Shown: positions 56,264-56,920 of the stretch, piece by piece
Numbering within the stretch: the first letter of the stretch is position 1
Layout: every line of letters begins with the position of its first letter
Assembly: GCF_055900595.2 (NCBI RefSeq)
Contig: NZ_CM148325.1
Reading direction: 5' to 3' (one strand)
DNA length: 64,000 nt
The notes under the pieces: model-generated
The model's database searches: none
The model's input: only the letters and a program-made list of their open reading frames with translations
Told to the model about the DNA's origin: nothing
Program-made: the position numbers and the translations under genes

Positions 56264-56386
56264 GTATATTTATCAGGATCTAAAGGTTTATAACCCTGGA
56301 TATATCAGGTATATAATCCAGTACCAGCATGTCTCATAAACATACCCGTTCAGGAAAACCAAACGACAACAGATGAGGCTTCAGAA

Positions 56387-56764
56387 ATGAACAGTAAAGA
56401 AAATTTGCGCAGTAGATTTTTGCAACTAATGACAGAAAAAGTTAAATCAGCGCTACTTCCACTTATGGTGGATAATAACGAAGCAACGAGCAGCATCCTT
56501 GCAGACCCTTACGGTAAACTCTCGCATAAAACGCTGGATATTATTATGAGTGCATTAACACCCCGTATGCTTCAACACCTGAAACAAGATATTAACGCAT
56601 GGGTGAATGAAGAATTGAGCCCCCCCTGTTCATGGGACAGACATTATGCATGGCAGCAAAAAATGAGGATTTTCAATTCATTATCACTAAAGTTCAGAGA
56701 ACCGAAACAGCGTCCCTTCCCTCTGGAATCAGACAAAAAACAACCTGATCCCACAGGCCCGTAA
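56387..56764 (+). CDS. Hypothetical protein, 125 aa, encoded antisense between holin and endolysin
   Basis: ORF track; GAGG Shine-Dalgarno 8 nt upstream of the ATG; AT-rich; no recognisable domain. Confidence 0.5.
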   Translation: MNSKENLRSRFLQLMTEKVKSALLPLMVDNNEATSSILADPYGKLSHKTLDIIMSALTPRMLQHLKQDINAWVNEELSPPCSWDRHYAWQQKMRIFNSLSLKFREPKQRPFPLESDKKQPDPTGP

Positions 56765-56920
56765 TATTTTGAATACCGTGATTATTGATATCACAATGAA
56801 AGCTATTCCGCACAGTTATGCCCTGCTCCCCACGGGGCATGCCTCATGAAACGTTCCGGGCGTTTCATGTTCCCGGATTTTGTTAAAAGGTATATTATCC
56901 CCTCACTCCCGGGATATTCG

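Follow-up and report, generated by a model that had tools for sequence, protein, structure and literature searches.

The gene that lies between the holin and endolysin genes of an E. coli lambdoid prophage, on the opposite strand, in the DNA analysed here (a stretch of 64,000 nucleotides, called the window below) is in our assessment probably an autonomous, moron-like accessory gene of the phrog_1853 family, and not a part of the lysis machinery. Judged from the substitutions among its alleles, it is a real gene under purifying selection, far beyond a chance open reading frame (ORF). It is patchily distributed among related prophages, it has been cleanly deleted from many of them, and it occurs with or without a convergent neighbour gene of the phrog_1085 family.

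Results

The lysis region of the window

The minus-strand late region of the window has the typical lambdoid order of Q, tRNAs, holin, lysozyme and Rz (Table 1). The original prediction described a 125-aa ORF on the opposite strand in a holin-endolysin gap of about 650 bp. The gap measures 657 bp (56264-56920), and the plus-strand ORF at 56387-56764, 125 aa in length, is the sole long ORF within it. The AT-rich composition and the good Shine-Dalgarno (SD) sequence that had been ascribed to this ORF were also borne out: the GC content is 0.39 in the 104-codon core and 0.42 in the gap, as compared to 0.52 in the lysozyme and Rz genes and 0.525 in the prophage, and the motif GAGG is located at 56375-56378, 8 nt 5' of the ATG.

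The window holin displays a hydrophobic core (maximum KD19 1.93), and the lysozyme carries a hydrophobic N-terminal segment of the type known from the R genes of Stx phages. Lysozyme R of mEp460 and PhiR40_1 is 94% identical to the window lysozyme. The nearest phage holins, those of YDC107_1 and PhiR46_1, show 75% identity in a match that spans features annotated as holin and lysozyme R, and no similarity to the spacer between the ORF and the holin of the window was found in either phage.

Other observations were made in the flanking late region. A 126-aa ORF 3' of Rz (54307-54687, minus strand) is an 'Rz-like spanin' according to PHROGs (phrog_1267) and a 'TonB family protein' according to PGAP, and probably represents a further, inconsistently annotated accessory gene of the late region. 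Just downstream of Q, a sub-threshold isrK/isrJ-like match (E about 0.1-0.2; 57884-57957, minus strand) probably corresponds to the pR'/tR' leader region.

Table 1. Features of the lysis region in the window and the evidence for each.
Feature	Position	Strand	Evidence
TonB-C-like ORF in the late region	downstream of Rz	-	
Rz i-spanin	55266..55748	-	phrog_13, E 4e-73; PGAP 'lysis protein'
Probable Rz1 lipoprotein, 68-aa ORF embedded in Rz	55307-55513	-	ORF list, N-terminal start of translation
Endolysin (phage lysozyme), 177 aa	55730..56263	-	phrog_7, E 7e-64; PGAP 'lysozyme'
Divergent intergenic region and 5' leader of the ORF	56264..56386	+	sequence
Conserved core of the phrog_1853 gene, 104 codons	56387..56698	+	phrog_1853, E 5e-41; alignments; dN/dS; AF2 model
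Stop-loss extension of the phrog_1853 ORF	56699..56764	+	allele comparison
Lineage-specific spacer, 212 bp	56709..56920	.	blastn against related loci
Holin, 90 aa	56921..57193	-	phrog_1350, E 3e-29; PGAP 'phage holin family protein' in some genomes
Two tRNAs between Q and holin: tRNA-Lys(UUU) and a CAU-anticodon tRNA (Ile2 per PGAP)	57609-57762	-	
Q antiterminator	57973-58668	-	lambdoid late region

The ORF belongs to a family under purifying selection

The ORF matched the profile of PHROG 1853 with an E value of 4.8e-41 (residues 1-102 on positions 57-158 of 159), and reciprocal family searches retrieved that family alone. It had been predicted to carry no recognisable domain, and searches of Pfam and NCBIfam were indeed empty, although the match to PHROG 1853, a family of unassigned function, does exist. 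A PHROGs search at E values up to 5 revealed nothing apart from phrog_1853, and a sequence profile search of the PDB gave no match. No match was found in PADLOC-DB 2.0 at E values up to 1 for the ORF, for one distant allele, or for three phrog_1085 partners. A word search of 5.8 billion proteins yielded 15 relatives and an exhaustive search of 1.84 billion representatives yielded 21 clusters; in both cases all those named by their source were 'hypothetical'. A full-text literature search, which included accession numbers, returned no paper on the phrog_1853 gene.

We gathered 103 loci through look-ups of exact proteins, phage records and a scan of IMG/VR. They represent 29 distinct nucleotide alleles, nearly all of them intact with a length of 104-107 aa and the ending '...LS(L)KFR', and the frame is still open at the lowest amino-acid identity to the window core (22%). 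The comparison of holin-endolysin junctions that the original prediction had proposed thus showed the ORF to be intact, rather than disrupted, in nearly all of the 103 related loci. Pairwise dN/dS between alleles ranged from 0.09 to 0.36, or about 0.1-0.3. In the ORF frame pN/pS was 0.24-0.36, with synonymous changes in excess of non-synonymous ones (Fisher p 3e-5 to 5e-9). In a six-frame control, values near 0.3 were displayed by the ORF frame and by the antisense frame that shares its wobble positions, and by no others. Since this antisense frame contains no long ORF (the longest listed on the minus strand opposite the ORF is 48 aa), the ORF frame alone is both constrained and open. The first 14 residues, which PGAP often leaves out, are conserved across alleles with synonymous changes, and the true start is therefore at 56387.

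An AlphaFold2 model of the core, built from a 7-sequence alignment, reached a pLDDT of 89 and a pTM of 0.80, with five helices (residues 3-27, 31-39, 47-56, 59-76 and 85-103). The ORF product has neither a hydrophobic or transmembrane (TM) segment (maximum KD19 0.76, against 1.93 for the holin) nor a signal-like N-terminus, and is predicted to be a soluble, cytoplasmic five-helix bundle. The isoelectric point varies from 4.6 to 9.5 among phrog_1853 alleles. This spread and the lack of a hydrophobic segment make a function in the membrane, or a conserved surface for binding nucleic acids, less probable. Foldseek gave no match in BFVD at E values up to 0.001, and in AFDB50 only uncharacterised E. 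coli, Shigella and Salmonella proteins that evidently belong to the same family; in PDB, AFDB and BFVD taken together no fold match above noise was found outside the family. Thus the homology and structure searches proposed earlier led to PHROG 1853 and to fold matches limited to the family itself.

Arrangement and distribution of the family

The phrog_1853 family was found only in lambdoid prophages of Escherichia, Shigella and Salmonella. Of 5426 complete E. coli genomes, 673 (about one in eight) carry the clade of the window ORF, and these are mostly STEC among the matches listed. Neighbour classes at the phrog_1853 loci were assigned by tblastn. We use PAR for the late-strand gene with a conserved C-terminal phrog_1085 domain, some copies of which have a YdfR/DUF1327 N-terminal domain. 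About 60 loci, of the O157/CP-933O type and also of the window type, have the order Rz-lysozyme-ORF(antisense)-holin, and about 30, for example Stx2-converting phage 86 with gp05/gp06, have Rz-lysozyme-ORF(antisense)-PAR-holin. The order lysozyme-holin-ORF(antisense)-PAR-Q, in which the ORF sits upstream of the holin, is that of the Salmonella-type loci (a few: one Salmonella genome, one viral contig and metagenomic contigs). Prophage remnants form a further class.

The ORF runs antisense to the late operon, next to the holin or the lysozyme gene, in every informative architecture; it diverges from the next lysis gene in all classified arrangements, and it shows no dependence on any particular type of holin or endolysin. 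PAR and ORF converge tail to tail, and in intact pairs the distance between their stop codons ranges from -33 to +21 nt; given this spacing, the transcripts of the ORF and the late gene must overlap in the intact module. The phrog_1085 domain of PAR carries the motifs IGRCMGxLQVAAEIE and DNPPFK...W..PG..YLKG (loci L003, L013 and L105-L184; absent in the window).

A search seeded with PAR retrieved 184 relatives on viral contigs, as compared to 89 for the antisense ORF, and in the loci examined PAR was located between holin and lysozyme. Among 80 PAR-seeded loci retrieved from the 184, at least 53 have the order holin-PAR-lysozyme without the ORF and a PAR-lysozyme spacing of 40-46 nt; when only loci having both holin and lysozyme are counted, the ORF is missing from 53 of 77. 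These ORF-less loci keep about 10 nt, 'ttatctgttg', which are the reverse complement of the last three codons of the ORF, including its stop. This scar is joined directly to the conserved upstream sequence of the lysozyme gene, 'ccgataaatcctgataaatatcc', and the junctions are partly similar in sequence. From the scar it follows that the ORF was cleanly deleted from an ORF-bearing ancestor, and not inserted into an empty site.

It had been claimed that holin and endolysin genes are normally adjacent in such phages. For E. coli lambdoid prophages this is true only in part. It holds for prophages Sp5 and Sp15 of strain Sakai, where the two genes are 4 nt apart with neither ORF nor PAR between them. 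However, genes between S and R are common, as seen from the 184 PAR relatives and the 673 of 5426 genomes. The site thus occurs in four states (holin-lysozyme, holin-PAR-lysozyme, holin-PAR-ORF-lysozyme and holin-ORF-lysozyme), and since either gene is common without the other and both are missing from Sp5 and Sp15, the two genes are independently dispensable.

The window allele

The stop codon of the relatives (...AAG TTC AGA TAA) is replaced in the window (...AAG TTC AGA GAA) by GAA at 56699-56701, and the ORF runs for 21 codons beyond the normal stop (EPKQRPFPLESDKKQPDPTGP) to a TAA at 56762-56764. The 21 extra residues are Pro- and charge-rich and are probably disordered. In the annotation of GF4 (see below), PGAP recognizes 56429-56698 only, as a pseudogene 'missing C-terminus'. 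Nucleotide similarity to all other alleles ends at about 56708, just past the normal stop (blastn against related loci), which together with the TAA to GAA change indicates a mosaic joint directly 3' of the ORF in addition to a stop-loss mutation. By comparison with its relatives, the window allele is a derived form that has lost its stop codon and is missing its phrog_1085 neighbour. The original prediction had overlooked both the stop-loss state (the normal length is 104 aa) and the missing convergent neighbour.

The spacer at 56709-56920 had no relative in phage records in a distant-mode search, and within E. coli its occurrence coincided with that of the window allele, in 19 complete genomes (23 places) and no others. 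The carriers of this allele are, among those listed, mostly poultry isolates, and the 54-60 kb part of the window matches that of E. coli GF4 (NZ_CP172217.1, from chicken meat) at 100% identity. Neither a YdfR nor a phrog_1085 gene was found in the window, and no phrog_1085 remnant was seen in the ORF-holin spacer of the O157-type arrangement.

Records of the exact 125-aa protein of the window exist for 470 contigs, and each of three near-identical proteins in its cluster is recorded for 214-488 contigs. Frameshift variants occur at the C7 and A6 runs of the allele in assemblies of raw reads. Because the allele is nearly invariant (99.5% or more identity among copies), selection is not measurable within it. 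Its 104-residue core is fully intact, with dN/dS of 0.18-0.30 against the nearest alleles. The window copy may nevertheless be inactive.

Several carriers (e.g. LH50-c and Ch1) contain the 657-bp gap twice, in different prophages, and upstream of one of the LH50-c copies lie a porin pseudogene and a Q that differs. From the two copies we conclude that the holin-spacer-ORF-lysozyme block moves between prophages as a unit. An IS66-family element (TnpA-like, 48600-49277, and transposase, 49644-51215, both on the plus strand) immediately adjoins the large-terminase ORF (51242-52891, minus strand), which is shortened to 549 aa, against 642 aa in GF4 and LH50-c; the window prophage is therefore probably packaging-defective. 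Two genes at the prophage end (25880-30396, minus strand) probably encode tail-fibre or adhesin-like cargo: the product of one (25880-27520) has a YadA-like domain at its C-terminus, and that of the other (28546-30396) has collagen-like repeats. The same end borders an ompW remnant in the closely related GF4.

Expression signals and leaders

A perfect TATAAT is located at 56312-56317, about 70 nt 5' of the ORF, with a poor -35 sequence (TTATAA or TATAAC). The TATAAT is common to several alleles of the same clade, and the GAGG motif is conserved across alleles. No plus-strand promoter or terminator serving the ORF was called in a consensus scan for such signals. Base pairing is possible in the predicted leader between GUCUCAU (56331-56337) and the SD region, AUGAGGC (56373-56379). 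The fold of the window leader is weak (-13.5 kcal/mol, z -1.6), and sister alleles display a local GUCUCA/UGAGAC hairpin that is lost in the window allele. The pairing with the SD region could act as a translational switch or could be fortuitous. An inverted repeat over the -10 box (CTGGAT-N14-ATCCAG, 56297-56322) was considered as an operator and rejected, since it is not conserved in other alleles.

The spacer contains one 8-bp hairpin and one 11-bp hairpin (CATGAAACG/CGTTTCATG core, 56845-56869) followed by TTCCCGGATTTTGTT. The 11-bp hairpin has no adjacent U-tract and is not a canonical terminator. Rfam searches of the gap and of the leaders at related loci were negative. A different, strongly conserved structured leader was observed 45-75 nt 5' of the ORF start in the more distant Stx-type alleles (L002, L003, L008, L009, L010 and L081). 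It consists of an outer stem, CAGCC/GGCUG, around an 8-bp hairpin, CGYCAGYG-loop-CACTGGCG, with only C/U (G-U compatible) changes in the stem, and in E. coli Stx-phage alleles the hairpin is followed by a U-run. This leader, which is absent from the window allele and without an Rfam match, looks like an attenuator or leader RNA.

Discussion

We suggest that the ORF is a gene with its own ribosome-binding site and -10 box, facing against the Q-dependent late operon. These two signals make it probable that the gene is transcribed alone, and its orientation would remove any dependence on Q antitermination. Such independent transcription would most plausibly take place in the lysogen. The product would be a small, soluble, cytoplasmic five-helix protein, and would probably act in trans through protein-protein contacts. 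Ancestrally, the order in this prophage group was probably holin, phrog_1085 gene on the late strand, ORF in antisense and tail to tail with it, and endolysin. The phrog_1085 gene and the ORF have each been lost independently since then, many times. In the window copy a recombination joint directly follows the gene, the neighbour is missing, and the change from TAA to GAA has added the 21-residue tail.

Two properties expected of a moron were found. The ORF is present or absent at the same site in otherwise collinear relatives, as seen from the four arrangements and the deletion scar, and its composition (0.39/0.42) is distinct from that of the surrounding phage genes (0.52/0.525). Functional phages without the ORF, its clean deletion in many relatives and its independence from phrog_1085 argue for a dispensable accessory gene. 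The original prediction had mentioned accessory cargo as one option, and this option fits the patchy occurrence, the precise deletion in many relatives, the deviant composition and the variable position with respect to the holin. However, a pure cargo model leaves the strict placement beside the lysis genes unexplained.

This placement, together with the invariable orientation, is the main argument for a different, and in our view unlikely, explanation, namely that the ORF modulates lysis or late genes, so that antisense transcription over the S-R junction, or the protein, damps or times the expression of holin and endolysin. Variants of it include, for example, protection from leaky late transcription in the lysogen, and the processing by RNase III of duplexes formed by sense and antisense RNA. 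Wherever it occurs, upstream of the holin included, the ORF is antisense and adjoins holin or endolysin; in the intact module it runs up to or into the convergent late gene at its 3' end (-33 to +21 nt); there is no canonical terminator between the window ORF and the holin; and structured leaders are present. Against this, purifying selection acts on the coding sequence and not just on the promoter, lysis cassettes with the same endolysin and Rz types function without the ORF in sequenced plaque-forming phages and Stx phages, and the ORF has been deleted repeatedly. Lambda biology indicates that Q-modified polymerase overrides a weak convergent promoter, and the same would be expected here. 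Antiholins have a TM segment or a periplasmic signal, unlike the ORF product, and an antiholin or lysis inhibitor of the lambda S107 or T4 RI type was rejected since there is no membrane or periplasmic domain and the model is soluble. Interference with lysis gene expression, defence and toxin functions, all raised in the original prediction, found no support, as there was no PADLOC match, no TM segment and no dependence on holin or endolysin type. A bolder version, which we regard as quite unlikely, is that phrog_1853 proteins form a novel group of factors that are expressed in the lysogen, act in trans, have a fold unseen elsewhere, and control the late/lysis programme of their own phage or of competing co-resident phages. 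They might do so by binding phrog_1085, endolysin or holin, or through the obligatory overlap of sense and antisense RNA, with the leaders gating expression.

The tail-to-tail pairing with phrog_1085, retained at about 30 loci in several diverged clades, could also mean that the lysogen makes the ORF product as an antidote to, or immunity factor against, an effector of the phrog_1085 family that is expressed late, and that a partnerless ORF is kept for protection from related phages, be they co-resident or superinfecting. Since many lambdoid prophages are present in STEC genomes, such cross-talk is possible. We nevertheless hold this to be very unlikely, because the ORF is alone at about 60 loci and phrog_1085 alone at at least 53 of 80 retrieved loci, the genes are convergent and not co-transcribed, and neither PADLOC nor toxin-antitoxin families gave a match. 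A co-fold of the ORF fused by a linker to the C-terminal domain of PAR (10 paired sequences, without PAE) reached a pTM of 0.44 with only moderate confidence for PAR (block-mean pLDDT of 53-78), and the model gave no sign of a docked complex. An obligate toxin-antitoxin or immunity pair is rejected on the independent distribution. As for the window copy itself, it might be a decaying remnant without function, a stop-loss pseudogene in a defective prophage that has spread clonally. The loss of the stop (TAA to GAA) with its foreign 21-aa tail, the pseudogene label given by PGAP, the IS66-family element beside the shortened large-terminase ORF, the frameshift variants of the allele in raw assemblies, and a near-invariance (99.5% or more) that leaves selection within the allele unmeasurable all point in this direction. 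Yet we do not think it likely, since the 104-residue core is intact with dN/dS of 0.18-0.30 against the nearest alleles, many hundreds of contigs carry the unchanged 125-aa form, as do 19 complete genomes (23 places, with two copies in some), and the fold need not suffer from a tail that follows the last helix.

An accessory gene, the reading we prefer, has precedents close at hand. The nearest is the family itself: PHROG 1853 includes WP_000138558.1, the 'unknown protein' of CP-933O in E. coli O157:H7 EDL933, and gp06 of Stx2-converting phage 86 (YP_794053.1). These share 46-84% identity and the 104-aa core with the window ORF, and are likewise antisense between holin (or phrog_1085) and lysozyme R. 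The window allele differs in its lost stop (125 aa), its unique 212-bp spacer and the lack of a phrog_1085 neighbour, and the window holin is of phrog_1350, whereas the holin beside the ORF of the relatives is of the class II Phage_holin_2_1 type. Lambda bor and the late-region morons (in the Juhala/Hendrix definition) resemble the ORF in being small, located by the lysis genes against the late operon, patchily present and deviant in base composition, with translation signals of their own. Bor is a secreted lipoprotein, in contrast to the predicted soluble, all-alpha product of the ORF. A serum-resistance phenotype and expression in the lysogen are documented for Bor.

Extra lysis-cassette genes are also known on the late strand. 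YdfR/DUF1327 and phrog_1085 genes lie between S and R (Qin ydfR; Stx2-86 gp05), and an Ant-like antirepressor gene lies between R and Rz in Stx phages. Unlike the ORF, these are transcribed with the lysis genes, and they are unrelated to it in sequence. They show that the S-R and R-Rz junctions of E. coli lambdoid phages routinely accept extra genes. [quoted passage not shown]

In conclusion, the phrog_1853 family is already catalogued and its architecture is that of a known class of late-region morons; the ORF falls outside any lysis, antiholin, toxin-antitoxin or defence family among those compared. The significance of the window itself is modest, as it contains a stop-loss variant in a prophage that appears to be defective. 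Of residual interest is the family as such: it is uncharacterised, a fold orphan, and invariably antisense where it occurs in the lysis region of STEC prophages. Our results further identify the holin-endolysin junction of E. coli lambdoid phages as a recurrent site of insertion and deletion, which matters for the annotation of lysis cassettes and for the reading of mosaicism. If expressed in lysogens, the ORF would add one more uncharacterised prophage cargo gene to roughly 12% of complete E. coli genomes, and its concentration in Shiga-toxin-producing lineages (O157:H7, O145 and O111, among the matches listed) makes it a candidate fitness or phage-competition factor.
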